The notes beneath the pieces were generated by a model. That model did no database searches. It was given only the letters and a program-made list of their open reading frames with translations, and had not been told where the DNA came from. This document shows, piece by piece, positions 1 through 16,150 of a stretch of 16,150 bases of DNA. Origin of the DNA: Promethearchaeota archaeon (GTDB lineage: Archaea; Asgardarchaeota; Lokiarchaeia; Sigyniarchaeales; SOKP01). The translations under genes were made by a program, and so were the position numbers. The stretch spans positions 1 through 16,150 of the forward strand of contig RDOA01000065.1 of the NCBI GenBank assembly GCA_011364925.1. Reading direction: 5' to 3'. Within the stretch, counting starts at the first letter, position 1; each line of letters begins with the position of its first letter.

Positions 1-13
1 GATCATCCCTCAT
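1..13 (-). CDS. Possible start of a gene running off the left edge
   Basis: ATG AGG GAT GAT at 13..2 on the - strand, with a TTAAATAT box (35-42) about 25 nt upstream. Confidence 0.25.
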
Positions 14-52
14 GGTATAAATAGTAAAAAATGCATATTTAAGATTTATGAC

Positions 53-59
53 AAAAAAA
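53..59 (-). terminator. Oligo-T (T7) putative archaeal terminator downstream of gapN
   Basis: A7 run on the + strand, about 65 nt past the gapN stop. An 8-bp inverted repeat (79-86/110-117) lies between them. Confidence 0.35.
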
Positions 60-122
60 TCGAAATTACGAATTAACGATGTTACACTATAAATTGTCGA
101 ACACTGTTCTGTAACATACTTC

Positions 123-1631
123 TTATTTGCATAGTTTTATCAATTTTCCTTTATCCGATAAGTTCAATACCATTCCTTTAGGTCTACTCATTGCTTCAAT
201 CGAATATTTGATCCCTTGCGTTCCCAGCCCCGATGATTTGGTACCTAAAAACGGAAAGTGGTCTGGTCCTCTCTCGCTCCTTCCGTTTATTTGTACAATG
301 CCTACTTCTAACTCTTGCGCGATGTGAAACGCTAAATCGATGTTTTCAGTGAATATCATCCCTTGTAATCCGTATTCAGACTTATTTGATATTTCTATTG
401 CTTCTTGGATATTTTTCGTTCGAATAAAAGGTAACACCGGTCCAAACGGTTCTTCCCAAGCAATTCGCATCTCGGTTGTAACATTGTCTAGCAATGTTGG
501 CCACATGATATTTCCTTCTCGCTTATTTCCACATAGTAATGTAGCACCTTTTTCTAAAGCATCATCTATCAATCCTTGAACGAAATCACATTGTATTGAA
601 CTTATAAGCGGTCCGATTGTAGCATTTTCCTCAGGATTTCCAATCGATAAATTCAATGTTTTTTCCTTGACTAATTTGATAAGGTCGTCAGCAATTCCGG
701 GCATTGGAAGGACTCGTTTTACAGCAGTACATCTTTGCCCGCTGTACGAGAAAGCTCCCGAAACAATAGCTTTTGTGGTTAGTTCTAAATCTGCATCGTT
801 TAACACGATTGCAGCATCCTTTCCACCTAATTCTAACAGCAATGGTTTCATTCCGGCAACGCTTGCAAGATGTTTCCCCGTTTCAGAGGATCCAGTGAAG
901 CTTATCATGTTAATTAAAGGGTGTTGTACTAAATAGTCTCCAATTTCAGATCCTTTCCCTGTGATTATGTTAAAAACACCGGGAGGAACTCCAGCTTTCT
1001 CTAAAATCAACCCAAAAAATAAAGGAGAAATTGCGCCTTGGGAAGGTGGTTTAACTACAACGGTATTTCCGGCCATTAATGCAGGAGCTATTTTAGATCC
1101 AGTAAGATTAAATGGATAGTTAAAAGGACCAATACAAAGAATCACGCCTAAAGGTACTCGGTAGGTTATTGACATTTTATCTCGACTAAAACCTTTAAAC
1201 GTGTCCCCGTAAATAGCTTCCCCCTCTTGTTGCAATCCAGCTTCGGCAGTAGCTTCAAAAAACTCGGCAGTTCGGAGTATTTCTGAAATAGCGCTTTTTA
1301 GCGGCTTTCCTATTTCTTTCATCATAATGTAGCCTAAAGGATTAGCCCAATCTCTCATTAATTTAGCAGCTTTCATTAATACATCTGCCCGTTCTCTCTG
1401 AGTTTTTTCGTTCCAACACTCTACACTATCATTAGCCGTAAGTATCACTTGATTAGCCTCTTCAGTGGAGCATGCTTGCACAGTTCCTACAATCTCACCA
1501 TTATAAGGATTTTTTACACTTAGCGTTTTTCCTGAAGACGATTTTTTCCAAGTTCCAGATCCAAAATATTTGAATTCTAAACCGTCTCTCATCACGAGAG
1601 AATTCGGGATTTTTTCGAGTTCTTCAATCAT
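123..1631 (-). CDS. gapN: NADP-dependent non-phosphorylating glyceraldehyde-3-phosphate dehydrogenase (ALDH11/GapN family)
   Basis: 502 aa with ALDH motifs PFNYPFNL, SFTGS, ELGGKDA (catalytic Glu), FSYSGQRCTAVKRV (catalytic Cys) and EEPFGP, plus the GapN-typical RGPDHFPF. SD AAGGTGA lies just upstream of the ATG. Confidence 0.9.
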   Translation of the reverse strand: MIEELEKIPNSLVMRDGLEFKYFGSGTWKKSSSGKTLSVKNPYNGEIVGTVQACSTEEANQVILTANDSVECWNEKTQRERADVLMKAAKLMRDWANPLGYIMMKEIGKPLKSAISEILRTAEFFEATAEAGLQQEGEAIYGDTFKGFSRDKMSITYRVPLGVILCIGPFNYPFNLTGSKIAPALMAGNTVVVKPPSQGAISPLFFGLILEKAGVPPGVFNIITGKGSEIGDYLVQHPLINMISFTGSSETGKHLASVAGMKPLLLELGGKDAAIVLNDADLELTTKAIVSGAFSYSGQRCTAVKRVLPMPGIADDLIKLVKEKTLNLSIGNPEENATIGPLISSIQCDFVQGLIDDALEKGATLLCGNKREGNIMWPTLLDNVTTEMRIAWEEPFGPVLPFIRTKNIQEAIEISNKSEYGLQGMIFTENIDLAFHIAQELEVGIVQINGRSERGPDHFPFLGTKSSGLGTQGIKYSIEAMSRPKGMVLNLSDKGKLIKLCK

Positions 1632-1789
1632 AATCTCACCTTCCTTAACTTTTCTGATTTAGAAAATGCTTTCTTAGATTTTTTAGAACATGATTCTTAA
1701 TAAAATTATTAGTAATAAATCAAAGGTTTTTCCATCTGTCTATTTATAGAGATTTATAATGAGGAATTATAAATTATTATTATAAATTT

Positions 1790-1827
1790 AACCACGAGGT
1801 AGTAGATGGTGCCCCTGCTGCTCGGTT
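1790..1827 (+). other. GC-rich intergenic stem-loop (candidate sRNA or cis-element)
   Basis: AACC/GGTT, GAG/CTC and TAGTAG/CTGCTG (two G-U pairs) close a 9-nt loop. 22 of 34 bases at 1792-1825 are G/C in an otherwise very AT-rich spacer. Confidence 0.4.
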
Positions 1828-1839
1828 CATGACAATGTC

Positions 1840-1847
1840 AAAAAAAA
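1840..1847 (-). terminator. Oligo-T (T8) putative terminator of the flavoprotein pair
   Basis: A8 run on the + strand, about 25 nt downstream of the stop at 1873 on the - strand. Confidence 0.5.
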
Positions 1848-1872
1848 TAATTGAATTAGGTAGGAATTAATT

Positions 1873-2541
1873 TTAGTAAAGTTTTTGTTTTATCTTCTGC
1901 TTTACTCCGTATCTTTTCGCTTGCGATTTCCAGCTATAATTACCGACAAATCTATAAAGGCTATCTGGAATCAGCTTTTTTGACATAAAGTCATGAGCTT
2001 CTTGAGGAATTTCTTTATCGTCCTTTAAAGCTTGAGCTACAAGATCTAACCCCCTAATAAAATTCCTAAACATACCTGGTTTCTCTAAAAGTGGAACTCC
2101 ATTAATTGCGCCACCCCCACCAACAGCTATTCCCCCTTTCCATATAAACCCACATTCTTTAGAGAAAATTCTACAAATCTTAAGAGCCGTATCGTTCTGG
2201 GATGCTTCTGGGAAACCATTATTAGAGATAGCAATAAAATTTTGGGGTTTTTTACTATTTAAAAAAGTTTTATTATCTTTTATTAATTCCATTGCTTTTA
2301 TAACGGGTGCTGGTAAACTATCAACGTACAATGGAAAAGTAAGAATCATTAAATCCATAGCTTCAATTTCGTTCAGTAGATTTTTCACTTTCTCTTCACG
2401 ATTTACGACTCTATGTATAAATAATTTTTCGCTTGTCGTCCCAGATTCTTCTAGTTTTGAGATTAAATAATTCCCTAAGGATGCAGATGTGCTTTGTTCG
2501 ACTTTTGGACTACCCACTAATAGGAGTGCTTTTTCGATCAT
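1873..2541 (-). CDS. Flavodoxin-fold NAD(P)H-dependent flavoprotein (FMN reductase-like), no Fe-S motif
   Basis: N-terminal LLVGSPKVEQSTS phosphate-binding loop, FPLYVDSLP and NNGFPE motifs. ATGA overlap with the upstream gene and SD GGAGG. Confidence 0.8.
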   Translation of the reverse strand: MIEKALLLVGSPKVEQSTSASLGNYLISKLEESGTTSEKLFIHRVVNREEKVKNLLNEIEAMDLMILTFPLYVDSLPAPVIKAMELIKDNKTFLNSKKPQNFIAISNNGFPEASQNDTALKICRIFSKECGFIWKGGIAVGGGGAINGVPLLEKPGMFRNFIRGLDLVAQALKDDKEIPQEAHDFMSKKLIPDSLYRFVGNYSWKSQAKRYGVKQKIKQKLY

Positions 2542-3113
2542 ATTTTGACCTCCACTTTTTCTAAAATTGTATTAAATTTGTCAAAAAATTCGGATTCATT
2601 TTGATCTTTAGAAAATGTAATTGCATCGTGAATTGGAGCGCCCATATTAAGAGAATTACGGTGAACTAATTCTTTAAATGTCAATTCTTTTTCGTCATCC
2701 TGATTATTCAAAAAGCCTATCGCAATTATTGATGCTCTGTTTTGATAACGATACAAATGGTGAGTTTCTCCCTCCCTTTTTGTAAAGAAAGGTAAAATTG
2801 TGGGGAGAAACCTGTCAATAACTTTTTTAAGCTCAGAAGAATAACCTCCAAATGTAATTGGGGTAAAATGAATAATGAGATTGCTTTGAACCATTTTTTT
2901 TGCGACTTCGCGACCATCATCAGCCGTTCTACATTCTCCAGGATTTTTTACCCAACAATCAAAACACCCTTGACATGCAGCGACATTTAGATCTCTTAGT
3001 ATAATGGAATCTATCTCAAATCCTTTTGATTTAAGCTTGTCTACTATTGACGAATAAATCTTATCAATATCCGAATCCTGCTCTAAAGTTCCATTTAGCA
3101 AAAGTGCTTTCAT
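2538..3113 (-). CDS. Flavodoxin-family iron-sulfur flavoprotein (Isf-like)
   Basis: CQGCFDCWVKNPGEC (CX2CX2CX7C) cluster motif; TPITFGGYSSELKKVIDR flavodoxin motif. Confidence 0.82.
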   Translation of the reverse strand: MKALLLNGTLEQDSDIDKIYSSIVDKLKSKGFEIDSIILRDLNVAACQGCFDCWVKNPGECRTADDGREVAKKMVQSNLIIHFTPITFGGYSSELKKVIDRFLPTILPFFTKREGETHHLYRYQNRASIIAIGFLNNQDDEKELTFKELVHRNSLNMGAPIHDAITFSKDQNESEFFDKFNTILEKVEVKI

Positions 3114-3223
3114 AATATATAATCTTCAAATTGGTTTTAATAATATTACGAAATTACTTGAGTACTTAAAGTTGAGTGCCAAATTTGCCTTAAAAATTGA
3201 AACTAGATTTAGATTAAAATTTC

Positions 3224-4468
3224 TTAAAGCAAGAATTTTGAAGATGCTATCCGTTTTTTGTAAAAGATCAATCCTAAACTGAAAAAGATAACGATGTATA
3301 TTATTAAACCAAAGATGTACGCTATATTAGAGACGTTACCGGTTAAAACTGTGTTATTTAGGATGCTAAAGCAATATGTAAATGGAATTAGTTCGACGAT
3401 AAAGCGTAAAGGTTGTCCAAATAATTCGATATTTATGAATCCGCCACATAAAAATAGTGTAGCAAGGACGAAAAACATCGAAATTGGAAAAGTAAATACT
3501 TGTTCTGGGATTAGCATCCCAAAAATAGTACCGAGCACTGAACCTAAAACGATTGTCCCTAATACAATTAGAAGAAACCCTAAAAAATCAATCGGGAACG
3601 GGAGTCCTATCCACAAGAATATTATTGTAGCGCCGAGTGTAAAATTTATTATAAGTGACAGAATAGTTGTTGATAGAACCTTTCCGATGTATGTATAATA
3701 AAGGTTTATGTTCGGGGATAAGGCAAGTTCTTGCGCCATTTTGTTATTTTTTTCGTTAAATACAAATGCTGAACCAATTATCATCGAAGCAACTAACGCG
3801 ACGAAACCAAGCGCACCTACTCCAATAGTCCACATTCTTGGGAATGTTGCTCTATTAGGATCAGCATCACTATAAGAATAAATAACCTCTGTTTCATTTT
3901 TAAGCACAGTATCGTAGTAGGCTTTCAATTTGCGTTGAAATCCGAAATAAAGGTTCTTGAGATAATCCTCGTTTATGTTTAAGCACTTTAGTGTAATAAT
4001 AATTTTACCACCGGACCATGAGCTATTTTTCACATCGGAAATAATAGTTTCGAAATTTTCAGGTAAAATAGCTATCATTACAATTTCTTCGCTATACAAT
4101 CGTTCTTCAAATTCTTCTTCTGTTGTTCCTATAAATTCAATGTGGCTTTTTACTATAGTCTTGCCTACCAAACCATTATTGTTGATATAACTCAAGAATT
4201 CTTGAGTATTATTCAATTCATGATTATTGAAAGCATCATTTAGTTCCTTGTTTGAAGCGTAATCTGGAATAACGACAGCAAGAGGATAATTAAAATTAAC
4301 GGCCCCAAAAATAAGGTTCATGAAGATTAAATAAGTTATAGGAAAAAGTAAGGAAAGTATGAATAAGGTGCGGGTAGGACCTCGAAAAATTATTTTGATA
4401 TTTTTTAAGAATTCTTCTTTAATAATGCTTAACGAACCTTTTTTGATTTTATCCTTCGCCTTTTTCAA
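3224..4468 (-). CDS. ABC-2 type exporter permease
   Basis: One N-terminal TM, a large extracytoplasmic domain, then about 5 TMs with LCGGF and IPFTY, typical of ABC-2. Overlaps the upstream permease by 4 nt. Confidence 0.85.
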   Translation of the reverse strand: MKKAKDKIKKGSLSIIKEEFLKNIKIIFRGPTRTLFILSLLFPITYLIFMNLIFGAVNFNYPLAVVIPDYASNKELNDAFNNHELNNTQEFLSYINNNGLVGKTIVKSHIEFIGTTEEEFEERLYSEEIVMIAILPENFETIISDVKNSSWSGGKIIITLKCLNINEDYLKNLYFGFQRKLKAYYDTVLKNETEVIYSYSDADPNRATFPRMWTIGVGALGFVALVASMIIGSAFVFNEKNNKMAQELALSPNINLYYTYIGKVLSTTILSLIINFTLGATIIFLWIGLPFPIDFLGFLLIVLGTIVLGSVLGTIFGMLIPEQVFTFPISMFFVLATLFLCGGFINIELFGQPLRFIVELIPFTYCFSILNNTVLTGNVSNIAYIFGLIIYIVIFFSLGLIFYKKRIASSKFLL

Positions 4469-5655
4469 AGTTTAAACCCCTTTTTAGATATTACATACCA
4501 AATTATTATCGTGAAAGCGATGGTTAAGATTCCTAAAACGCCTAATCGTAATAGCGAATACGGTAAAGAAGGATAATATGTTTCTGAAAACATGATTTCA
4601 AACCAATACGTTCCGGGAAGAAATCTTGAAATAAAATATATCTGTTCTCCTAACATCCTAACTGGAGCAAAACCGCCCATAAAAAACCATAAAAACACTG
4701 AAATAACAATTGCTACAAGGATAGTGGTCATTTTATTTTTAATCCGCAACCCTATTAACCCTCCAATACACGCGTGGATCCAAGTTGACATTATAAACGC
4801 GCATATAACAATTAAGAGATTTCCGCGAAATTCTACATCATATAAAATGAATAACAAGGGCGAAGCAATTCCAACCACCATCAACCCTAATGTTACAGCA
4901 ATGAGCTGTTTTGACGCAATGTAAGCTGTCCTCTTTACAGGACTATTTAGTATCTCTATTATGGTATTATCGTCGTATTCCTTTGCAACATTTAGCGAAC
5001 CAAAAAAGAGTCCGCAGGTTAAACTGAACATACAAATGATCCCAATAACTAAACCTCGAAGCATACTTAGGTTTTGATCAATTACGTAATCTTTTTGAGC
5101 AATGATAGCAAATTGATCAACGTGACCATAAGATACGTGAACTTCTTGATTAAACGTTAAGACAGCTTCGTCTAACCTTTGGAGAAAATTCTTCACGTAA
5201 TCGTCATTTATGTTTTGAACCTCTAAATAGATAATTCCCTTTATGTTTGGATCATTAGCGCTTATATTTAATTGAAACCCTGTTGGAATGTAAATCAAAC
5301 CTAAGTACTCCAAATTAAGTAGCTTTGCTTCAGCTTCTTCGTATGTATCTATATTTATTACGTTAAACCAAGGAGCAAACTCGCTACTCACATTTCCAAT
5401 ATAGTCAGTCATTATATGTGAGTAGGGTGTATCGTCTTCGTCAACAACCATAACTGTAAATGTTTCAGGATCAGTAATTCCTGATAAAGAGGAAAAAACG
5501 ATTAAGATAACAATTGGAGGGATGATTGCACCAAAGAAATACTTTTTGACTCTTTTCGTTGAAATTAAATCTTTTCGTAAAATTGTTGCCAAGTCATAGA
5601 ACCACTGCTTTAACTTCAACCTTACCTGTTTTTCTTTACGATTTTCAGCTTTCAT
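4465..5655 (-). CDS. ABC-2 type exporter permease
   Basis: VVDEDDTPYS and IYIPTGF extracytoplasmic motifs, EYDDNTIIEILNSPV coupling helix, FMGGFAP and FLPGTY. Overlaps the ATPase gene by 11 nt. Confidence 0.88.
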   Translation of the reverse strand: MKAENRKEKQVRLKLKQWFYDLATILRKDLISTKRVKKYFFGAIIPPIVILIVFSSLSGITDPETFTVMVVDEDDTPYSHIMTDYIGNVSSEFAPWFNVINIDTYEEAEAKLLNLEYLGLIYIPTGFQLNISANDPNIKGIIYLEVQNINDDYVKNFLQRLDEAVLTFNQEVHVSYGHVDQFAIIAQKDYVIDQNLSMLRGLVIGIICMFSLTCGLFFGSLNVAKEYDDNTIIEILNSPVKRTAYIASKQLIAVTLGLMVVGIASPLLFILYDVEFRGNLLIVICAFIMSTWIHACIGGLIGLRIKNKMTTILVAIVISVFLWFFMGGFAPVRMLGEQIYFISRFLPGTYWFEIMFSETYYPSLPYSLLRLGVLGILTIAFTIIIWYVISKKGFKL

Positions 5656-6673
5656 TATCTCTAAATTCCTTTCCTGTAAGTTTTAAAAAGACATCTTCAA
5701 GAGTTGGCTTTTTAATCGTGAATTCATCGATAGAAATGTTATGAGAGGTGGTATAATTAATAAACTTTTCAAGAATTTCGTTCAAATCATACGTACCAAA
5801 TACAAATTGAAATAGTTTGTGTTGTTCACTGACTTGCTTTTCTAAAATAATTTCCCCGCCCAATTCTTTTATTAGAAAATTATCAAAAAATTCAGAATTT
5901 ATAACATCTAGAGTTGTTTTAAATTCTATGATTGATTCGGGAAAAATCTTTTTTTGAATATCCGGTAACCTAGCAGGACCTTCAATAATTGATGTATCTA
6001 AAATAATGATGCGATCTGCTAGTCGTTCTGCCTCTTCCATATAATTAGTAGTTAATAATATTGTTTTTCCCTGCTTAGGTAAATCTAAAATGTAATCGTG
6101 AATTGCTTTTCTGGATTGGACATCAATTCCTAAAGTTGGTTCATCTAAAATAATTATGTTTGGCTCGTGAAGTAATGCTCTAACCAGTTGAAGGCGCCTT
6201 TTCATCCCACCTGAATAAGTTCCAACATAATCGTTTTGACGCTCTGTTAATCCAACAATCTCTAACATCTCATCCACTTTTTGATGAAGTTTGTATTTAG
6301 GGACATTATACAATCGTGCGTGGAATGTTAAATTTTCTCGCCCTGTTAATTCATTATATAACGCGATTTCTTGTGGAACGAGTCCAAATTTCCCTACTAA
6401 TTTTTTTCGATCTAAAATTGGATCCAAATTATTAATAGTAATTTTCCCTTGAGTAAGTTTAATTTGCCCAGTTAATAATTTGACTATTGTAGATTTTCCT
6501 GCTCCATTTGGACCAATAATACAAAAAATTTCATTCTTGCGAATTGAAAACGAGACATTTTCTAACGCTGTTATATTGGGATAATCTTTACGCACATTAT
6601 CGGCTTTAATTATAACATCATTACTCTCAGCGTTGATAAAATGTTCACTAGTTACTTTTTTATTAGCTGACAT
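5645..6673 (-). CDS. ABC exporter ATP-binding protein (DrrA/NodI-like)
   Basis: Walker A GPNGAGKST, Q-loop VPQE, signature YSGGMKRR, Walker B IIILDEPT, C-terminal PTLEDVFLKLTG. The H-loop reads TTNY rather than TTHY. Confidence 0.93.
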   Translation of the reverse strand: MSANKKVTSEHFINAESNDVIIKADNVRKDYPNITALENVSFSIRKNEIFCIIGPNGAGKSTIVKLLTGQIKLTQGKITINNLDPILDRKKLVGKFGLVPQEIALYNELTGRENLTFHARLYNVPKYKLHQKVDEMLEIVGLTERQNDYVGTYSGGMKRRLQLVRALLHEPNIIILDEPTLGIDVQSRKAIHDYILDLPKQGKTILLTTNYMEEAERLADRIIILDTSIIEGPARLPDIQKKIFPESIIEFKTTLDVINSEFFDNFLIKELGGEIILEKQVSEQHKLFQFVFGTYDLNEILEKFINYTTSHNISIDEFTIKKPTLEDVFLKLTGKEFRDNES

Positions 6674-6737
6674 TACTAAGCATCTTTATTTATGGTAATA
6701 TCTCTAATTTAACCTATAATACAAAAATATATATATT

Positions 6738-6757
6738 TATACTACTATAGTAGTATA
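6738..6757. promoter_or_regulatory. Perfect 20-bp palindrome, putative TrmB-family operator in a divergent promoter
   Basis: TATACTACTA|TAGTAGTATA. It overlaps a - strand TATA-like TATAAATA (6734-6741) and lies just upstream of a + strand TTTAAAAA (6763-6770), which ends 25 nt before the regulator ATG. Confidence 0.7.
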
Positions 6758-6795
6758 TAGTATTTAAAAAGATTGTGGTTAGTTGAACGGTTTCA

Positions 6796-7647
6796 ATGGA
6801 TAATCTCACCGTACTCTTAAAACGGTTAAATTTCACTCAATATGAAGCGCAAACCCTTGAATCTCTAATAAAGTACCATGTCCTTAGCGCTCACGAGTTA
6901 CATAAATATAGCGGAGTGCCCCAACCCAAAATTTATGAAACAATGGTAAGGCTTCAACAAAAAGGTTTTATTGATATAATTCCGCGAGGAAGAAAAAAAC
7001 TTTTTATGGCTAAGCCAAGAGAATTTATTCAAGAAAAGCTATTAACCTATACGAGAGATATTGAAAAAAGTGGAAACGATTGCGTGAAAATCATCGATAC
7101 AATTTACAGTTCGGAAGAAGCTGAAGAAATCCCTTTTATTGGAGTCGCTGGAACGGAGAGAATTCAGGAATATTTGTATACATTAATTGATACCGCGAAA
7201 ACTTCTATAATTTCGTTCTTTCCGATTTCTCACTTTGACGATAAAATCATATCTATACTAAGCGAACGAGATGATAGCTTGGATATCAAGTTAATCTTTC
7301 AAGATGAGACTATAGCCATGAAGATTCAAAAGAAACTTCCAAATGTGGAAGTGCGCGTTCTTGAATCTCCTGCATTAAATAACATTCAGAACTTTTTTGG
7401 TAAAATTGGAGACTTTCTTCAACCCGAACAGAAGAATTCTTATACATTTCAAATTATAAAAAACATTATAGTAAGATTAGAAGAGATTTTTGGATTAATT
7501 GTTATAGACGAGAGAAAAAGTTTCTTTAAGATTCCTATTCCGATTGAATTACCGATGGCAATTTTTAGTACCTCTCACGAGGTAGTTCAATTTCATTTAA
7601 ATGGAATTAAAGAAATTTTAGGTTCCTCCGTTATAATAAAGAATTAA
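6796..7647 (+). CDS. TrmB-family transcriptional regulator
   Basis: N-terminal wHTH FTQYEAQT...SAHELHKYSGVPQPKIYETMVRLQQKGFI, then LIDTAKTSI and a C-terminal effector-binding-like domain (LIVIDER). Confidence 0.9.
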   Translation: MDNLTVLLKRLNFTQYEAQTLESLIKYHVLSAHELHKYSGVPQPKIYETMVRLQQKGFIDIIPRGRKKLFMAKPREFIQEKLLTYTRDIEKSGNDCVKIIDTIYSSEEAEEIPFIGVAGTERIQEYLYTLIDTAKTSIISFFPISHFDDKIISILSERDDSLDIKLIFQDETIAMKIQKKLPNVEVRVLESPALNNIQNFFGKIGDFLQPEQKNSYTFQIIKNIIVRLEEIFGLIVIDERKSFFKIPIPIELPMAIFSTSHEVVQFHLNGIKEILGSSVIIKN

Positions 7648-7710
7648 CATATTTAAAAACTATAAACAAAGTAAGAATAGAAATCGTACCAGTATTGTAG
7701 GTTTATATAA

Positions 7711-8370
7711 ATGTCTTATGTGTATATGAAAGCTTTGGAAAAAAAGGCAGAAAAATACGATAAAGGGATAAGTTATCTGACTCTTGGACACCTTCCTAAA
7801 ATTAAAAAATATATTTCAGAAAATTTCGTGCTTAAAGACGAGAAAATTCTAGATATTGGCATGGGCACGGGAACCTTTTCCATTCTTTGTGCTGAAAAGG
7901 GGGCAGTTGTTACCGGGATTGATTATTCCGAAAAAATGCTAGGGGTAGCAAATGAAAACATCAAGAAGAAAGGGTTAACAGAAAGCATCCAAATCATGAA
8001 AATACCAGTAATTGAACTAGATAAACAGTTTACGGACAAATCTTTTGATAAAGTAACAGCGATCTTAGTATTCAGCGAGCTTTACCAAGCTGAGCAGGAT
8101 TTTTGCCTTGATCAAATTAATAGAATCTTAAAGGATAATGGAGAATTTATTTTAGTCGATGAGGTTAAACCTAAAAAAGTTTGGAAAAAAATTGTTTATT
8201 TCTTTATTAGAATTCCTTTAGTAGTTATTACATATTTTAAATCCCAGTTGACAACTCAATCCTTAAAAAATATAGAACGAAGATTTAAAAGTCATAATTT
8301 TTCTTTAATTGAAGAAAGAGCTTATTTATTAGATTCTTTGAAATTGTTTAGGTTAAAAAAAATAACTTAG
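7711..8370 (+). CDS. cpaM: Class I SAM-dependent methyltransferase, corrinoid protein-associated (CpaM-like)
   Basis: Motif I ILDIGMGTG, GIDYSEKML, LKDNGEFILVDE. The N-terminus YVYMKALE...YDKGISYLTLG resembles the MTases found next to HgcAB-like fusions (recalled, not searched). Ends 28 bp before the corrinoid gene. Confidence 0.75.
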   Translation: MSYVYMKALEKKAEKYDKGISYLTLGHLPKIKKYISENFVLKDEKILDIGMGTGTFSILCAEKGAVVTGIDYSEKMLGVANENIKKKGLTESIQIMKIPVIELDKQFTDKSFDKVTAILVFSELYQAEQDFCLDQINRILKDNGEFILVDEVKPKKVWKKIVYFFIRIPLVVITYFKSQLTTQSLKNIERRFKSHNFSLIEERAYLLDSLKLFRLKKIT

Positions 8371-8398
8371 AAATAATATCGTATTAGATGAGAGAATA

Positions 8399-9490
8399 AT
8401 GAATCTAAAAAAATCCCTTAAATTATTCTTAGGTTTCTTTTTAAGGTGGACCGGTTTTCCTGTAGAACCGACCCTTTTAAAAATCGGAAACCCAACAAAA
8501 GAAAGTCCCGTTTTTGTCACTTGTAATTTTAATCTCACTGTAAAGCGAGTTTTAAAGGCACTAAAAGATCTTGACTGTTATTTATTAATTGCTCCTTCTA
8601 ATGGAATAAATGTGTGGTGTGGAGCGTGTGGTGACGATTTCCACACCGATTCTGTCTTGTCCATTATAAAAACCAGTGGAATCGATGATCTTGTGGAGCA
8701 TAGAACATTAATTTTACCGCAATTAAGCGCTCCAGGTATGGATCCAATTAGTATTAAGAAAAAGTCTGGTTGGAATGTAAAATTTGGACCTGTATACGCT
8801 AAAGATATCTACTCATACGTAGAGAACCAGTTCAATAAATCAGAATCACAGCGAATAGTGAGATTTCCAATCTCAAAAAGATTAGAAATGGCGTCTCTGT
8901 ATTTTTTTCTTTTGTTTCTTTTAACTTCCGCTGTTTATTGGATTGTTGCGATTTTTTTACCAATTTTAAATTTATTTCTTTATTTAGATACTGTTCTAAT
9001 CTTAATAGGTCTAATTTACGGCCCTATGCTAATCTTGCCGAGCATTACATGGAAAACGGGAAAACTAAAAATCTGGATTTACGAGGTAATAGCGCTTTCA
9101 TTAATAATATTGTTTAACCTATTTATTAGGTTTGACCTTCTTTATCTAATATGGAATATTGTTGCTTCGCTTTTAATTTCACTAATAATGGCTGAAGATT
9201 TTCATGGCTTAACTCCAATTTTTAAAAGTGAAATAGGTGCAAAAATCTGGAAGAAAGGTGGGGACAAAATGAGATTTTTGTTCGGTGAATATAAATTGCA
9301 GCCGTATGGTCAAATAACTCTTGAGCGAGATAAGTGTATTGGATGTAAAGTATGCATAGAAGTATGTCCTCGAAATTTATACGCATTTAATAAAGATGAT
9401 GATAAAGTAGATTTAAGAAACTCAGAAAAATGTATAAATTGTAATGCTTGCGTTAAAAGGTGTTTAGCTCAATGCCTTGAAATAAAATAA
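8399..9490 (+). CDS. Fused HgcAB-like protein: CdhD/AcsC-type corrinoid-binding domain + about 4 TM helices + 2[4Fe-4S] ferredoxin
   Basis: IGNPTKESPVFVTCNFNLT, cap helix GINVWCGACG, HRTLILPQLSAPG and VKFGPVYAKDI are HgcA-like. A hydrophobic block ending DFHGLTP is followed by CIGCKVCIEVCP and CINCNACVKRCL. Confidence 0.9.
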   Translation: MNLKKSLKLFLGFFLRWTGFPVEPTLLKIGNPTKESPVFVTCNFNLTVKRVLKALKDLDCYLLIAPSNGINVWCGACGDDFHTDSVLSIIKTSGIDDLVEHRTLILPQLSAPGMDPISIKKKSGWNVKFGPVYAKDIYSYVENQFNKSESQRIVRFPISKRLEMASLYFFLLFLLTSAVYWIVAIFLPILNLFLYLDTVLILIGLIYGPMLILPSITWKTGKLKIWIYEVIALSLIILFNLFIRFDLLYLIWNIVASLLISLIMAEDFHGLTPIFKSEIGAKIWKKGGDKMRFLFGEYKLQPYGQITLERDKCIGCKVCIEVCPRNLYAFNKDDDKVDLRNSEKCINCNACVKRCLAQCLEIK

Positions 9491-9548
9491 ATATAATGTA
9501 AGGTTAGATAAAACATATAAAAATTGATATTAGGTGGTTATATTGTCC

Positions 9549-10109
9549 ATGTCAAACGAGAATAATGCGAATAAAGATGATTTGCCGCGACCTGGATCCG
9601 TGTTGTATAATTTTAATTATCAAGACGAAGCGACCAGGAAAAAAATGTTAAGAAGATGGAAAAACCTAAATAAATATTTAATGATCCCATTGTATAGAGC
9701 AAGGATCTTGCCATTATTAGGTTTCGGAAAGATTATACTGATTCTAAAGACAAAAGGATGGAAAACAGGAAAGATAAGAAGAACTCCACTAGAATATCGA
9801 CGATACGAAGGAACAATTATTATTTTTGCTGCAAGAGGCGAGAACGCAACTTGGCTAAAAAGTATACGGGCAAATCCAGAGGATGTGTCGGTTCTGCGTG
9901 GATTTCGTAAATTTACTCCGCGCGTAGAAATTGTTTCAGATATAAACCAAAAAGTTTCAATTGCGAAATGGTACATAACAAAATACGGAAGGGCAGCAAA
10001 ATTACTATTCGGTTGGGACCCTAAAAACGACAATCTAGAAACAACTAATTTTCTAAAATTAGCAGACATTTTAACTATGGTTCTTCTTCATAAAAAGGTT
10101 GATTTATAG
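9549..10109 (+). CDS. Deazaflavin (F420)-dependent nitroreductase family protein (Ddn/FDOR-A, DUF385-like)
   Basis: LILKTKGWKTGKIRRTPL and WLKSIRANP motifs. Start moved from GTG 9534 to ATG 9549 because AGGTGG (9532-9537) looks like its SD. Confidence 0.8.
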   Translation: MSNENNANKDDLPRPGSVLYNFNYQDEATRKKMLRRWKNLNKYLMIPLYRARILPLLGFGKIILILKTKGWKTGKIRRTPLEYRRYEGTIIIFAARGENATWLKSIRANPEDVSVLRGFRKFTPRVEIVSDINQKVSIAKWYITKYGRAAKLLFGWDPKNDNLETTNFLKLADILTMVLLHKKVDL

Positions 10110-10299
10110 CTCTTAAAAAACTATTTTCATTTTATTTTAGAAATCTCTTTTTATTTCATTGATCTTTAGTTGAATTCTATAACTTTTAAGAAGTAATCTA
10201 ATTATGTCTAATCTTTTACTAAAATGTTAAATATTAAGTTGATAAATAATACCATGTCCAATGTTTTAGAAAATCATATACATAGAACAGTGTATAAAA

Positions 10300-10797
10300 T
10301 TGAAAAAGAAAGTAAAGTTAAATTTAATCTTATTGATCTCTACTGCTATACTTCTATCGTCCTCTTCAATTACACCTCAAACTATGGCACAAGAAAGCAT
10401 AACAATTTGGGCAAGCGGGTGTATTGTTTGTAATCAAGAAAATAATTATTTTTTTGTAAATTGGACTTCTACGGGTACAATTCCCCAGATATCGATCTTT
10501 ATTTACAATTTAACCTTGACGACTCTGGAATACACGGTCGTAGATGGGACGACAAATGATGGTACTTTTGGCTGGAATTTTCCTGCTTCTCATACACTTG
10601 ATGGAGAATATTATTTATTAGTGTGTGATACCAGTAATCATAATGTAAATGATACTCGTTTAATACATGTATATCCAATACAGACATATCCTCCACCACC
10701 TATACCCGGATTTCCTGTGTTAATAGTTGGATTGATAATTGGAATAACAAGCATAATAGTAGCCATCCCTTTAACTAAAAAATTAAGAAAGAGATAA
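10300..10797 (+). CDS. Secreted surface-anchored beta-sandwich protein with IPGF-TM-basic C-terminal sorting signal (PGF-/Loki-CTERM-like)
   Basis: TTG start; signal peptide MKKKVKLNLILLISTAILL; VNWTSTG...TTNDGTFGWNFP...GEYYLLV (Kre9/KNH-like); PPPP linker; IPGFPVLIVGLIIGITSIIVAIPL-TKKLRKR; sequons NWT, NLT, NDT. Confidence 0.78.
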   Translation: MKKKVKLNLILLISTAILLSSSSITPQTMAQESITIWASGCIVCNQENNYFFVNWTSTGTIPQISIFIYNLTLTTLEYTVVDGTTNDGTFGWNFPASHTLDGEYYLLVCDTSNHNVNDTRLIHVYPIQTYPPPPIPGFPVLIVGLIIGITSIIVAIPLTKKLRKR

Positions 10798-10811
10798 TTT
10801 ACTTTATCTTA

Positions 10812-10819
10812 TTTTTTTT
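10812..10819 (+). terminator. Oligo-T (T8) putative terminator
   Basis: T8 run 15 nt after the stop at 10797, between convergent genes. Confidence 0.5.
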
Positions 10820-10864
10820 ATTTTCTTGTTATTTACTTGAATTATACAAATTTCAAGAAAAGAA

Positions 10865-11383
10865 CTAACGCTCTTGAGGGATCGTAACGATAAAAGAACC
10901 AGTTTCTATATTCTTACGCAGTTCATTAAGACTAAATCCTAATCCATAGCAGAAAAGTTTCCTATTAGGAACGATTTTTATAAACACTACTCCTTCTTCT
11001 TTATCGTTTCTCTTATTTACCTCTTTTAAGTTCATTTTGAGAATTTTAGAGCCCGAGCTAAACGATTCCTGAGCATCCTTATCGCTAAAAGGCAAAATTT
11101 CTGCTGTACCTTGGAATTGAACGCACGATGCTGGTACGAATCTCAAAATATGATGAGGAAAAGGAATTACAAATGAAACGGAATCATTTATTTCTATATT
11201 CTTAACCTTCTTATAATTTCTATGCGTTAGAATGTATAACGCAAAGTGAGCTTTAGAAGACGCTACTGCATATACTATCCCTGTGGAATGAGAATGACCG
11301 TTTTTACCAATCGTGCTAATTATGCCAAATGATCTCTTTCTAATCTGCTTTTCAACAAATTCAAAATTTTGTTTTTTACTCAT
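10865..11383 (-). CDS. Pyridoxamine 5'-phosphate oxidase-like (split beta-barrel flavin/F420-binding) protein
   Basis: FGIISTIGKNGHSHSTGIVY, KKVKNIEINDSVSF, VQFQGTAEIL and FIKIVP match the PNPOx-like fold pattern. Confidence 0.75.
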   Translation of the reverse strand: MSKKQNFEFVEKQIRKRSFGIISTIGKNGHSHSTGIVYAVASSKAHFALYILTHRNYKKVKNIEINDSVSFVIPFPHHILRFVPASCVQFQGTAEILPFSDKDAQESFSSGSKILKMNLKEVNKRNDKEEGVVFIKIVPNRKLFCYGLGFSLNELRKNIETGSFIVTIPQER

Positions 11384-11407
11384 TTTAATCTACTTTTCGT
11401 ATTTTAA

Positions 11408-11429
11408 ATATTCGTTAGTAAACGAATAT
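11408..11429. promoter_or_regulatory. 9-bp perfect inverted repeat (operator or terminator hairpin)
   Basis: ATATTCGTT-AGTA-AACGAATAT, between the stop at 11432 and a - strand TTTAAAAT box (11401-11408) upstream of the 11383 start. Confidence 0.45.
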
Positions 11430-11431
11430 GT

Positions 11432-11869
11432 TCATTTTAACTCAATTAACGGCTTTTTTTTAAAATAACCAACGACTAAAAGAATGAAAATCACGCTACA
11501 CGCTAAAAGCTCAAAAGAACTAAAAGGTACAAACACAATCGAGAGTATCATCGTAATAATTAGACTTACGATACCAATCCAAAAACCCCATAATCGATTT
11601 TTAAATAGCCCTACTGCAGAAACCACCCGCATCAAAGTAAACGCCCAAAAAATGGGTGCTAAAGATAAAGGCTGAGATTCTAGAAGGGTTTGAATCAATT
11701 GCACCTCAAAATTAAAGATTAGAAGTAAGTTAGGAACTACATTTAAAATCATTAAGAGAACCACGATGCTGTCTGCCATTTCAAGTACAGAATAAATTAG
11801 CATTAGAATTGATGCTACGAACAGAGACTTATTATTTTTAATACCAAGGTGATCTTTTATATCATTCAT
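11432..11869 (-). CDS. Hypothetical membrane protein (about 4 TM)
   Basis: 145 aa with hydrophobic helices, a GLFKNRLWGFW loop and a basic C-tail. AGGA SD; 20 bp downstream of the ICMT-like gene. Confidence 0.7.
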   Translation of the reverse strand: MNDIKDHLGIKNNKSLFVASILMLIYSVLEMADSIVVLLMILNVVPNLLLIFNFEVQLIQTLLESQPLSLAPIFWAFTLMRVVSAVGLFKNRLWGFWIGIVSLIITMILSIVFVPFSSFELLACSVIFILLVVGYFKKKPLIELK

Positions 11870-11889
11870 AGAGCAATTCCTTTTGTTCC

Positions 11890-12798
11890 TTACTCTCCTC
11901 CTAATATGAACCTAAAAAAGGAACCCCAGTCTCTTATATGGGCAAAAAACGCAGGAGTTTTCCTCCTATATTCTACATATGAATCTCCAAACCGATTAAT
12001 CAATTCCTTTTCTTCTACAAAATGAATATGTATAAACATCCCGAAATACAATATTAAGAAAAACAAAATTGAGTATATCGTTAAGTGAATAAATGTTCCA
12101 CCTAGACAAACCATTAAAAGTCCACTATATGTTGGATGTCGTAAAACAGAGTAAATTTTGTGATCTTGTAATTCGCTTTCTTCGGGAAAATAGAGGTAAA
12201 CGACAGTCATATAGTCAAATCCAAAAGTAAATATAGCACGAACTGCCATTGCAACTCCCAAAATAGTGAAGAACGCTCCTAATAAGAAACGGAAATATCC
12301 AAGAAGCAGAGAAATTGGTGTTAGATAAGAGGTTAAAGGGGTTACAAATAGTGAAAAGGGAAACTGTGACCAGAAAGAAGGATTGCTTTGATTAGTAGCT
12401 AGAAAATTATGCACTACGATACTAAAAAGAAGAACAACACCAGCGAATCCCACAAGGAATATTCTTTGGTACGATAATTTACCATACTTCGCTTTTAACC
12501 GTTCGCGTTGATACCACATTTGATACACTAAAAATATCGCGATACCGCCAATAATTACAACTCCCAAAACAGGAAATACGATCGTGTAATATCCCGCTGT
12601 TCCATTTACTGGAATTAAAGAGGGAATTATATCAAAATAAATCTGAGTTGTTAGACTTAATCCAAAAACCACTAAAACGTATAACGGTAGGATAATTATC
12701 TTTTTCCCAGACAGCATAGGTATTTTTTCCAGAAATTTATCTAATCCTTTTAGCTTCAGATTGATCACGAGTCTAATATATGAAATATAACCATTCAA
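11890..12798 (-). CDS. Isoprenylcysteine carboxyl methyltransferase/PEMT-family membrane methyltransferase with an extended N-terminal TM region
   Basis: IYSVLRHPTYSG and EEKELINRFGDSYVEYRRKTP motifs. The true start may be GTG 12768 or CTG 12759. Confidence 0.82.
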   Translation of the reverse strand: MNGYISYIRLVINLKLKGLDKFLEKIPMLSGKKIIILPLYVLVVFGLSLTTQIYFDIIPSLIPVNGTAGYYTIVFPVLGVVIIGGIAIFLVYQMWYQRERLKAKYGKLSYQRIFLVGFAGVVLLFSIVVHNFLATNQSNPSFWSQFPFSLFVTPLTSYLTPISLLLGYFRFLLGAFFTILGVAMAVRAIFTFGFDYMTVVYLYFPEESELQDHKIYSVLRHPTYSGLLMVCLGGTFIHLTIYSILFFLILYFGMFIHIHFVEEKELINRFGDSYVEYRRKTPAFFAHIRDWGSFFRFILGGE

Positions 12799-12892
12799 AA
12801 GGGTATAAATACTTTGGGCTTATAGAAAGTTATTTCCATGAGAGTTCATCTGCTAAATAATTTTAATTAGATGTTCATGTTATTTTTAATAT

Positions 12893-13576
12893 ATGAGTAA
12901 TCGTGGAGAAAGTAGTTTTGTCAAATTGCCAAAATTTGCTGCGAAACAATATGACAAAATGATGCAATTAGAGCCAATGAGAGAACAACGGGTTCAAATT
13001 GCTGAGATTTTAATATTACAGATAAATGAAGGAACCCTGCTAGACATTGGAACGGGACATGGAAGATTATTAATTGAAATTAATAAATTAAATCCTAAGA
13101 TTGAGTTATATGGGCTTGATATTTCACAAAAGATGATCGATCTTGCTAAAGCTAATCTTAAAAATATTAATGCTAATTTACAAACTGGGAACATTACATC
13201 TACTAATTACGGGAATGATTATTTTGACCTCGTTACATGTACAGGAAGCTTTTACTTGTGGGATGCTCCGGTAGAAGGATTAAACGAGATTCATCGTATT
13301 TTGAAAACGAAAAAAACAGCAATATTATTTGAGAGTCACAAAGAATATAATGAGTCAAATCTTAAAGAACAAATTAAAAGAAATCTCGCTCGCGAAGGAT
13401 TCATTAATCGAAAATTAGTTCCGCGTTTTTTAAAAAAGCAGCTTAAAATGACCTATGACATAAAGGAATTAGAAGAGATAATTAACAGCTCTTTATTTAA
13501 AAACCATTATTCCATTCAGAAAATTACATTAGTGAACTTGCCAATTTGGTTAAAAATTGAAATAAAAAAGGAATAA
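12893..13576 (+). CDS. Class I SAM-dependent methyltransferase
   Basis: LLDIGTGHG, GLDISQKMI, FDLVTCTGSFYLW, EIHRILK. Confidence 0.88.
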   Translation: MSNRGESSFVKLPKFAAKQYDKMMQLEPMREQRVQIAEILILQINEGTLLDIGTGHGRLLIEINKLNPKIELYGLDISQKMIDLAKANLKNINANLQTGNITSTNYGNDYFDLVTCTGSFYLWDAPVEGLNEIHRILKTKKTAILFESHKEYNESNLKEQIKRNLAREGFINRKLVPRFLKKQLKMTYDIKELEEIINSSLFKNHYSIQKITLVNLPIWLKIEIKKE

Positions 13577-13609
13577 TTTAATTAGTTTCTATTTTGAATC
13601 TTAGAACTG

Positions 13610-14668
13610 TTAATATAAATAAAACCATCTAATAAATGTTAGAGAAAAACCTATCAAAATCGTGGCTAAAAAGATATAAAATAAATACAAATTTGCTTTA
13701 TAATGCCAAGACTTTTTGTTTAAATCTCTTTTTTTTGACTTTTTTAAACCAGTAATAGCGCCGGGTATAATCAATATCATAGAAACTAAAGCAGTTATTC
13801 CATGAATGGTATATAAAATTCCTCCTCTATTGATAATCGTAGAGATTACCCAATAAAAAAAAATGCTTAGAGACATGAGATAAAATCCAATGCCAAACGC
13901 GATATGGAATTTCTTATTTACAAATTTTGGTAAATCGTTAAAAAAAGTTGTAACAGGCGATGTTTTTAGTCCAGACATTAAAGCAATACCCCCTAGAAGA
14001 AAAGAAATCGACATTAATGAAGCATGTAAATACCAATCTGTGAAAACGGTACGATATGCATTATCGCTCCATCCTCGGCTTTCCCAATATCCTATATAGT
14101 CGTAATTCACAATTTCGATTCTTACAACCCATTTCACCCATTTATATCCTAATTGATTTGGGGCAACAACTCTAACAGGAAATCCTTGCTCAACTGGAAG
14201 AGCCTCGTGATTCATTTCGTATGCTAAAATAACATTATCCATACTTGCTTCCTCAATCGTTAATGAAGACGAATAGTCATCTGCTGCGTAAAAAACAACA
14301 TCTACAGCTCCCGTTTGAACTTGTGCTAAATCAAGTAAATTCTTAATAGGAACGCCTTTCCATAAAGCTGTTGCGGAAAACCCATCAACACAATGTAATG
14401 TCGCAACAATTTCTTTTGAAGGTTGAGAAGTAAAATTGGAGTAAGTAAATGTTAAATTATTATTTACATACCCGTCAATGGTTAAATTCCAAGTGTCAGA
14501 AGGCACATATGGAGCTTCTCCCTTGGATACTACAAAAAATTCATCGTTAGGCGTAATTGTAAAGGAGTTAATCGTGAACCCTAAAATCCCAATTAAGGGA
14601 AGACACAGTAAAATAAGAATTCCAATATATTTTAGGTACACATTGCTTTTTCTATCCATAAAACTCAT
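13610..14668 (-). CDS. Sulfite-oxidase-family (MsrP-like) molybdopterin oxidoreductase fused to a 4-TM, 4-His cytochrome b561-like domain
   Basis: WNLTIDG, LHCVDG (Mo-ligand Cys93), WKGVP, LAYEMN, QGFPVRVVAP, GYKWVKWV, GYWESRGW. N-terminal TM; four C-terminal TMs carry H215, H255, H289 and H322. Confidence 0.85.
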   Translation of the reverse strand: MSFMDRKSNVYLKYIGILILLCLPLIGILGFTINSFTITPNDEFFVVSKGEAPYVPSDTWNLTIDGYVNNNLTFTYSNFTSQPSKEIVATLHCVDGFSATALWKGVPIKNLLDLAQVQTGAVDVVFYAADDYSSSLTIEEASMDNVILAYEMNHEALPVEQGFPVRVVAPNQLGYKWVKWVVRIEIVNYDYIGYWESRGWSDNAYRTVFTDWYLHASLMSISFLLGGIALMSGLKTSPVTTFFNDLPKFVNKKFHIAFGIGFYLMSLSIFFYWVISTIINRGGILYTIHGITALVSMILIIPGAITGLKKSKKRDLNKKSWHYKANLYLFYIFLATILIGFSLTFIRWFYLY

Positions 14669-14749
14669 ATAGGTTATCCTAGTTTTAAAATGTTAGGTTG
14701 ACCTTACATAAGTATAAACCGCTTTTATATTATTGACACTGATTACAAT

Positions 14750-15346
14750 TCATTTTCGTAGTTTTGGAAAGATGGCTCCTGTATTTTTACGATATTCGCG
14801 GTATTTATCCCCGAATCGCTCAATAAGATCTTTTTCCTCATAGTAAATCATAATAGGAAAGTACACGACAATAAGTATTGATGAAATAATTATTAAAAAC
14901 CAGGAATTTAACGCAAAACTAAGAGCAACAAATAACGGAAATTCTCCAACCGATTGAGGGTGTCGAATGTATCTATAAATTCCGCTATACATTTCAGTAT
15001 CTTTCGAAGGGCTAAGTGTTTCAGATCCGGCAGCTTTAATGCCCAAATATAACATAATACAGCAAGGAATGGCAATACAAAGCCCGATAATAATTCCAAC
15101 CCATATGTTGGAACTTATTATCCATGTATTTACTATAGGCAAGGGAAACCATATCCAGAGGATTAAATTAACCATGGTGATTAGTTCGAAAAGCCCTCCT
15201 ATACTTCGGAATCTTTTGCAATCCTTCCATGCTTTCTCTCCATGCTTCTTCGCTCTCTTTACGGGTTGAATACTGAGAATGTATAAATAACCCATAAGAA
15301 GACATGCAACTATCAAAGAAATAAAATTAATTATTGCGAAAATCAT
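14750..15346 (-). CDS. Isoprenylcysteine carboxyl methyltransferase/PEMT-family membrane methyltransferase
   Basis: GIYRYIRHPQ and EEKDLIERFGDKYREYRKNTGAIFP motifs; about 5 TMs. Confidence 0.87.
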   Translation of the reverse strand: MIFAIINFISLIVACLLMGYLYILSIQPVKRAKKHGEKAWKDCKRFRSIGGLFELITMVNLILWIWFPLPIVNTWIISSNIWVGIIIGLCIAIPCCIMLYLGIKAAGSETLSPSKDTEMYSGIYRYIRHPQSVGEFPLFVALSFALNSWFLIIISSILIVVYFPIMIYYEEKDLIERFGDKYREYRKNTGAIFPKLRK

Positions 15347-15414
15347 AATGAAAAATATACAAATTTGATACTTATAATAGGGTTATCGATTAAAAAAAGG
15401 TTTGTACTCATAAC

Positions 15415-15582
15415 TTAACTTGAGGTCCATTTTTCATAACTCGCAACTTCTTCTTTGTTTACGATCTGAGTAGGATGACCTGAATGAGCTTTGTCAAATA
15501 GAGATACTTCTTTACTATTTTCGAAATCATTCTCACGAATAGGAACATACTGTTTGCATTTAAAGCATAATTTAACTCTCAT
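15415..15582 (-). CDS. Small 55-aa putative zinc-binding protein (CxxC...HxxH), absent from the ORF track
   Basis: Hand translation: MRVKLCFKCKQYVPIRENDFENSKEVSLFDKAHSGHPTQIVNKEEVASYEKWTSS*. SD-like AGGAAGTGA upstream, T7 run (15392-15398) downstream, fills an otherwise empty gap. Confidence 0.75.
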   Translation of the reverse strand: MRVKLCFKCKQYVPIRENDFENSKEVSLFDKAHSGHPTQIVNKEEVASYEKWTSS

Positions 15583-15729
15583 AGAATGTGGTCACTTCCT
15601 ACGATCTAAAGTAGTTCCAATATACAAGTAATATTCCTAATATTTAACTCTTGTTCAAATAAATCTCTGATCTACAAAAATTTGAAGATTTTGGATTTCA
15701 ATATTGAAGTCTTTATTTGAATTATTAAC

Positions 15730-16143
15730 TTAGCTTTGTTTATATTTTTGCAATGCTTCTTGCTTTCTATGCCTCAGACTGTCGAAATCATAATTTTGTT
15801 CGAAGAAAAAATCAAATGGGTCTTTTATATTCTCCACTAAGTGCTCTGAATAGAAGATTTCATACATATATCTGCCTTTGTTAGTTAATTTTACTATATT
15901 GTCATTTTCCATTCTCAATAGCCCTTGGTTTATTAAATTTTTAATTACAGAATTTATTCCTTTTTCTTTGAATAGATAAAGACCAAAATACGAAAAACTT
16001 GTATAAATCTCTTCGCTCTTCTTTAATGAAAGTTGAAATTTCTCGTTAAGCTCATTTAAAAGGATAGGTTTGGCGGTATTTTCAACTAAAACAGATAAAA
16101 TCCATTTATTGATATACTCCTCAAAATTTTCTTCATATGACAT
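15730..16143 (-). CDS. Hypothetical winged-helix domain protein (may extend beyond the window edge)
   Basis: INSVIKNLINQGLL...VKLTNKG is a wHTH recognition-helix/wing pattern. The frame stays open from the ATG to the window end. Confidence 0.55.
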   Translation of the reverse strand: MSYEENFEEYINKWILSVLVENTAKPILLNELNEKFQLSLKKSEEIYTSFSYFGLYLFKEKGINSVIKNLINQGLLRMENDNIVKLTNKGRYMYEIFYSEHLVENIKDPFDFFFEQNYDFDSLRHRKQEALQKYKQS

Positions 16144-16150
16144 TTGGAAT

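Follow-up and report, generated by a model that had tools for sequence, protein, structure and literature searches.

HgcA and HgcB, the corrinoid protein and the ferredoxin that methylate mercury, have relatives in which both parts are fused into one chain, and the native function of HgcAB and these relatives is a long-standing question in mercury biogeochemistry. Purified true HgcAB forms methylcob(III)alamin from S-adenosylmethionine (SAM) with Co-thiolate ligation, and HgcB acts as the electron mediator (PMC11588087). Two thiol features, the C-terminal Cys-Cys of HgcB and the N-terminal CC/CU of HgcA, have been tied to the handling of mercury (PMC11588087; bioRxiv 10.1101/2022.07.06.499078). 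Here we describe a locus of the fused kind in a 16,150-nucleotide stretch of DNA from a Promethearchaeota archaeon (GenBank assembly GCA_011364925.1, contig RDOA01000065.1, positions 1 to 16,150), which is referred to as the window. Its source contig (C77 in our numbering) lies within a 3.9-Mb genome (~32% G+C). Positions 7711-9490 hold an ordinary copy of a catalogued two-gene pair, the corrinoid protein-associated class I SAM methyltransferase CpaM and an HgcAB-like fusion protein, and we consider it probable that this copy of the widespread cassette acts as a methyl relay from SAM through Co(I) to an acceptor other than mercury.

The CpaM and HgcAB-like genes of the window

Four genes follow one another on the + strand, encoding a TrmB-family regulator, a 219-aa methyltransferase, a 363-aa protein and a 191-aa protein. 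A preliminary description, made from the letters of the DNA, had proposed that the last three form a corrinoid-dependent methylation module. The three reading frames (7711-8370, 8399-9490 and 9534-10109) and the position of the TrmB gene were as stated there, and its reading of the middle protein as a corrinoid domain, a membrane anchor and a 2[4Fe-4S] domain in one chain agrees with the Pfam matches, the motifs and the four transmembrane (TM) helices given below. The novelty that it implied did not hold, since the pair is already curated in NCBIfam as CpaM (NF043040) and HgcAB-like fusion protein (NF043039). GenBank homologues in Promethearchaeota, with 56-79% identity, already carry the name HgcAB-like fusion protein.

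The methyltransferase gene (7711-8370, +) was identified as CpaM by the curated model NF043040 (250.1 bits, cut-off 180), and a profile search of the source genome returned one CpaM copy above the cut-off and one HgcAB-like gene, which are adjacent. The protein has a class I fold with the SAM-binding loop D48-I-G-M-G-T-G54, and SAM-dependent transfer of a methyl group to or from a corrinoid is predicted for it. The residues D71, S122-E123, D150-E151, P154, R167 and P169 are conserved in the family. No Cys was conserved across 69 CpaM sequences, except for the loop Cys of G-C-G-T-G (81% of the sequences; Met here). A family that has no conserved Cys set is unlikely itself to bind a thiophilic metalloid, which fits a corrinoid substrate. 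An ArsM-type arsenite methyltransferase was also considered for this gene and rejected, because the As(III)-binding Cys set is missing and no ArsM model came near its cut-off (35-41 bits). Support for the start at 7711 comes from codons 2-5, which vary solely at wobble positions among relatives, and the same variation rules out a later start at Met6, a residue that is 100% conserved. Literature searches returned no paper on CpaM.

The HgcAB-like gene (8399-9490, +) begins 28 bp behind CpaM, and its 363-aa product covers profile positions 2-349 of the 350 in NF043039 (375.5 bits, cut-off 285). The N-terminal part is a CFeSP-type (CFeSP, corrinoid iron-sulfur protein) domain for corrinoid binding (aa 19-146; 8453-8836, +), which matches PF03599 of the CFeSP/CdhD type at aa 22-138 (61.6 bits). 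Its sequence matches in the PDB are the CFeSP large subunits 2h9a and 4djd, and the PDB sequence searches returned no solved HgcA-type structure beyond CFeSP. The cap helix reads N71-V-W-C74-G-A-C77-G (aa 71-78; 8609-8632, +), with C74 as the presumed Co-thiolate ligand; among 51 aligned family members N71, W73 and C74 are invariant and V72 is nearly so. The second Cys, C77, is confined to the Asgard and Hadarchaeota rows and some all-fused forms, and outside these groups the commonest cap helix is NVWCAAxGG followed by H, less often by L, M, I or Y.

Four TM helices (aa 158-266; 8870-9196, +) were predicted at approximately aa 158-186, 192-215, 221-244 and 247-266 by a hydropathy scan and the AlphaFold2 model, which has a mean predicted local distance difference test (pLDDT) of 93.0 and a predicted template modelling score (pTM) of 0.87. 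The even number of helices, together with a Lys-rich loop at aa 218-224, would place the corrinoid and ferredoxin domains both on the cytoplasmic side. The C-terminal HgcB-type 2x[4Fe-4S] ferredoxin domain (9314-9487, +), recognized by Fer4 Pfam families, contains two CX2CX2CX3C motifs, C313/316/319/323 and C345/348/351/355. Eight of the nine Cys examined in this domain are conserved in the 51 members; C313, C319, C323, C345, C348, C351 and C355 are invariant, and C316 falls outside the list of residues with at least 90% conservation. The protein is predicted to bind a cobamide and two [4Fe-4S] clusters.

Linkage of CpaM to corrinoid proteins and a candidate methyl relay

A family survey with one genome per GTDB species (species representatives) returned 79 loci, which span Asgard, Hadarchaeota, Bathyarchaeota, Thermoplasmatota, Chloroflexota, Acidobacteriota, Desulfobacterota, Myxococcota, Actinomycetota, Spirochaetota and others. 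Of the ~73 informative loci, 71 have the CpaM gene next to the HgcAB-like gene or joined to it; two further loci are cut at the contig end, and CpaM is missing only in L042 and L053. The CpaM-like gene lies directly 5' on the same strand, with a gap typically of -4 to +30 bp (usually a 4-bp overlap or less than 30 bp), and the curated model NF043040 gives 233-300 bits for distant examples. An in-frame fusion is present in 11 loci, with the architectures methyltransferase (MT)-HgcA-TM-ferredoxin (Fd), or MT-HgcA-TM with a separate Fd. The true hgcA loci, with the cap NVWCAAGK and a separate hgcB, were without CpaM in all four cases. A CpaM partner is the most reliable marker telling HgcAB-like genes, which confuse metagenomic counts of mercury methylators, from true hgcA.

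That the pairing of methyltransferase and corrinoid protein is far above chance is strongly supported by these counts. The independent fusions show that the two work as one unit, and together with the near-universal adjacency they uphold the functional coupling that the preliminary description had suggested. Natural CpaM-HgcAB-like fusions are also found in Asgard (P0109, P0115), and the model of the P0109 fusion is one compact body (pLDDT 92.2, pTM 0.90); a Foldseek search with the fusion model hit only the published HgcAB model and class I methyltransferases of a generic kind, and gave no functional lead. According to Pfam tallies, no other gene is conserved within two genes upstream and two genes downstream of the cassette: TetR accounts for 8 of 118 upstream genes, and ABC_tran and F420H2_quin_red for 4 and 3 of 132 downstream genes, respectively. 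The neighbourhood survey that the preliminary description had called for had a divided outcome, in that linkage is conserved for the methyltransferase (71 of ~73) and not for the Ddn-like gene behind the pair (4 of 79).

By analogy with purified HgcAB, and from the obligate pairing and the fusions, we infer which way the methyl group flows, what the ferredoxin domain does and what kind of acceptor is served, as follows. CpaM would dock on the corrinoid domain that the membrane-anchored HgcAB-like protein holds in the cytoplasm and move the methyl group of SAM to the Co(I) of the cobamide, whose lower ligand would be the cap-helix Cys C74. The methyl-Co(III) would then pass its methyl on to an acceptor located at the membrane face, probably not Hg(II), and the C-terminal 2[4Fe-4S] domain would feed low-potential electrons for the reduction of Co(II) to Co(I).

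Several points weigh against such a relay. True HgcAB draws its methyl group from SAM with no methyltransferase at its side (PMC11588087), which leaves the requirement for CpaM unexplained; the part of CpaM could instead be confined to reductive reactivation, or the final substrate could be what it methylates. In addition, CobS (TIGR00317) was not found in the source genome, which is 100% complete by marker genes, so that the cobamide, which two HgcA-type proteins of this genome would need, the cassette's among them, may be imported.

A reading as a repair device only, in which CpaM and the ferredoxin domain remethylate oxidized Co(II) reductively with SAM, like the activation module of methionine synthase, takes up the first of these points. 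The catalytic methyl donor and acceptor would then be other molecules, and the system could even be a demethylase. The corrinoid domain does have both parts of a reductive methylation attached to it, one that binds SAM and one that carries low-potential electrons, and single loci have RACo-type activator or URO-D/MtaA-like genes nearby. However, a further catalytic methyltransferase would be needed, yet the neighbourhood tallies hold no other conserved partner; SAM is the catalytic donor for true HgcAB (PMC11588087), and the obligate 1:1 pairing with repeated fusions resembles a core catalytic subunit. We hold a repair function alone to be unlikely.

The Ddn-like gene and other neighbours

The third gene of the proposed module (9534-10109, +) encodes a 191-aa Ddn/FDOR-A-like split-barrel protein, which scores 38.2 bits on PF04075 (F420H2_quin_red; cut-off 22) and 39.7 bits on TIGR00026, below the cut-off of 46.35. 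Residues 65-120 of the protein match the split-barrel core of the Ddn/FDOR-A F420H2-dependent quinone/nitro-reductases (PF04075; PDB 3r5z, 3r5r), and the protein differs from these as a member of an Asgard-only subfamily whose N-terminus is extended by 60 residues; all of the 121 subfamily relatives that have a source name are Asgard. Depending on the start chosen, the gene lies 43 bp (GTG 9534), 52 bp (TTG 9543) or 58 bp (ATG 9549) behind the HgcAB-like gene. The start is likely TTG 9543 or ATG 9549, both of which follow a conserved GGTGG, and TTG 9543 stands where relatives have ATG. In the intergenic alignment of relatives, this GGTGG and a conserved TATA-like CATAAAAATT precede the gene, which makes either read-through translation or an own promoter possible. 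The source genome encodes CofD (318.6 bits), CofE (281.4), CofH (461.7) and CofG (370.9), all above their cut-offs, so that the F420 label for this protein is plausible.

It was proposed in the preliminary description that CpaM, the HgcAB-like protein and this F420-dependent reductase work jointly, the last supplying electrons or acting on the same substrate. In favour of such a module, F420 would be available, and the GGTGG would suit translation of one mRNA that the genes share. Among close Lokiarchaeal relatives (58-86% identity) the Ddn-like gene is found directly downstream in L013, L107, L108, L112, L120 and G104, where, as in the window, it lies 40-85 bp away on the same strand; in L015 it follows at a distance of 1 kb, and in L024 it stands upstream, which amounts to ~8 of 22 close relatives in this subclade. 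There is also an independent case in the Anaerolineales (L080), in which a CpaM-HgcA fusion is followed by a split ferredoxin and then by a PF04075 gene (60.6 bits).

Against this, phmmer and a subfamily hidden Markov model found a Ddn-like gene in only 4 of the 79 family loci (L013, L015, L024, L080), and ~12 other close Lokiarchaeal relatives have none within at least 1.5 kb downstream. Both genes are present in 11 of 151 Asgard genomes and adjacent in 2 of them, with distances of 67 kb in G071 and 126 kb in G054; ~20 of the 151 have the Ddn-like gene without the cassette, and ~16 have the reverse. The two thus occur independently across Asgard. The loci that share the Ddn arrangement also share wider synteny, including the TrmB, PNPOx-like and PEMT-like genes, so that most of the agreement reflects common descent, and the TATA-like element would allow the Ddn-like gene its own promoter. 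On biochemical grounds, F420H2 (~-340 mV) is too weak a reductant for the Co(II)/Co(I) couple of corrinoid proteins, and FDOR-A enzymes reduce small substrates, not Fe-S proteins.

A joint three-gene module is therefore improbable. Adjacency of the Ddn-like gene to the cassette is limited to part of one Lokiarchaeal clade and a single Anaerolineales genome, and an F420 enzyme as a general part or electron supplier is not supported, since many Asgard genomes hold one of the two without the other. The gene is a neighbour inherited within one Lokiarchaeal subclade rather than a defining component; its product is unlikely to be the cobalt reductant and is at most an accessory enzyme, acting for example on a substrate or product. 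The F420-type neighbour should accordingly not be read as a component of the system. There is a small chance that in this subclade the Ddn-like F420H2-dependent reductase was recruited as a true third component, which would prepare or consume a redox-active, membrane-soluble acceptor of the SAM-to-cobalt methyl relay. If so, its substrate would reveal the native target of the HgcAB-like family, and the PF04075 neighbour in the Anaerolineales would mark a second such recruitment.

The remaining genes of the window give the context of the cassette. The TrmB-family regulator (6796-7647, +; PF01978, 55.8 bits) is regarded as context only: the same gene precedes the cassette in the closest relatives (L015, L108), and it is not kept family-wide, other lineages having the TetR genes counted above or nothing in this place. 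Divergent from it, at 3224-6673 (-), is an ABC-2 type exporter with an ATPase and two permeases, which is syntenic in L015. As a partner of the cassette this exporter was rejected, since an ABC ATPase occurs in only 11 of the 79 loci, about background by our estimate.

Downstream, at 10865-11383 (-), lies the gene of a split-barrel protein that resembles PNPOx/FDOR-B (35 bits on PF01243; TIGR03618 under its cut-off), a second possible F420 or flavin enzyme that is syntenic with the cassette in L011, L015, L107 and L120. Within 6 kb 3' of the cassette there are also two PEMT/ICMT-like membrane methyltransferases (11890-12798, - and 14750-15346, -) and a further class I SAM methyltransferase (12893-13576, +). 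PEMT-like genes adjoin the cassette also in L014, L034 and L051, a weak recurrent association (3-4 loci in the tally). At 13610-14668 (-) there is a gene unrelated to the cassette, in which a molybdopterin oxidoreductase domain (PF00174) is joined to a membrane domain of DUF4079.

Comparison with HgcA/HgcB and other corrinoid systems

Like HgcA/HgcB of P. mercurii ND132, the protein of the window combines a TM domain and a ferredoxin of the 2[4Fe-4S] kind with a CFeSP-type corrinoid domain whose cap helix bears a Cys; in both, SAM is likely the ultimate methyl source (PMC11588087 for HgcA/HgcB). The two differ in that A and B are fused here and four TM helices are present, whereas HgcA is described with five, and in that a dedicated SAM methyltransferase accompanies the window's protein and none accompanies true hgcAB. 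The protein also falls below the cut-offs of both models, with 170 bits against 275 for HgcA (NF040863) and 46.5 bits against 99 for HgcB (NF040864). With N(V/I)WCA(A/G)GK taken as the criterion for a true HgcA cap helix, inspection of the sequence found no Lys in this helix (NVWCGACGDD), no CC tail at the C-terminus (RCLAQCLEIK) and no Cys in the first 40 residues, where the N-terminal Cys/Sec pair would lie; the HgcAB-like family is without the thiol motifs that handle mercury. In a midpoint-rooted corrinoid-domain tree (99 rows, 136 columns), which has limited resolution, a split with 95/87 support separates the HgcAB-like clade, including the window's protein, from true HgcA and the Asgard MT-HgcA fusions.

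The cultured fused-hgcAB organisms Pyrococcus furiosus and Methanococcoides methylutens made no methylmercury (PMC4646819, PMC5893877), as the preliminary description correctly stated. Although the N-V-W-C cap helix, the Co-ligand Cys and the overall HgcA/HgcB architecture are kept, a functional mercury methylase like HgcAB is very improbable in view of the model scores, the missing motifs, the position in the tree and the negative results with organisms that carry fused HgcAB (PMC4646819, PMC5893877, PMC10087281). With the thiol motifs absent and cultures that tested negative, the acceptor in the proposed relay is probably something other than mercury.

A paralogue in the same genome offers a further comparison. 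On contig C32 (L088:6836-11061), arsR (-) is divergent from acr3. After acr3 come a 555-aa fusion of a CpaM-like and an HgcA-like part (cap NVWCAARG), an HgcB-like ferredoxin whose Cys-rich tail ends in SCCG, and a protein of 132 aa that is rich in Cys. At least eight related Asgard genomes (L089-L097) keep this gene order, and a true ArsM (363 bits) stands beside the paralogue in L095 (G125:C173). Both this operon and the window's cassette couple a CpaM-like domain, an HgcA-like corrinoid membrane protein and a ferredoxin; in contrast to the operon, the cassette has no linkage to arsenic genes and no separate CC-tailed HgcB, and the corrinoid-domain tree puts the paralogue together with true HgcA, apart from the window's protein. 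In another Asgard genome, at L106 (G025:C110:1-8000), an ArsM-like methyltransferase lies upstream of bona fide HgcA (436 bits) and HgcB (108 bits). Associations of hgcAB with arsenic genes have already been published (PMC7438021; bioRxiv 10.1101/2022.10.17.512643).

With the three-component corrinoid systems, of the MtaABC or the MeTr/CFeSP type, and with the SAM-dependent reactivation of methionine synthase, the cassette would have in common that a protein-bound cobamide carries a methyl group from a loader to an acceptor and that reduction to Co(I) is fed by Fe-S centres or flavodoxin. It differs from them in that its predicted loader is a Rossmann-fold SAM methyltransferase, its carrier is membrane-anchored and presumably Cys-ligated, and a separate unloading methyltransferase is lacking. 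From the family already described as fused HgcAB (NF043039; Podar 2015; Gilmour 2018; Lin 2023) with its CpaM partner, nothing essential sets the cassette of the window apart. Architecture, gene order and pairing are the same, and the local peculiarities are limited to the CxxC cap helix of the Asgard clade (NVWCGACG) and the semi-conserved Ddn-like gene that trails the cassette in part of it. The copy in the window brings no new kind of system; it is a further member of this catalogued pair.

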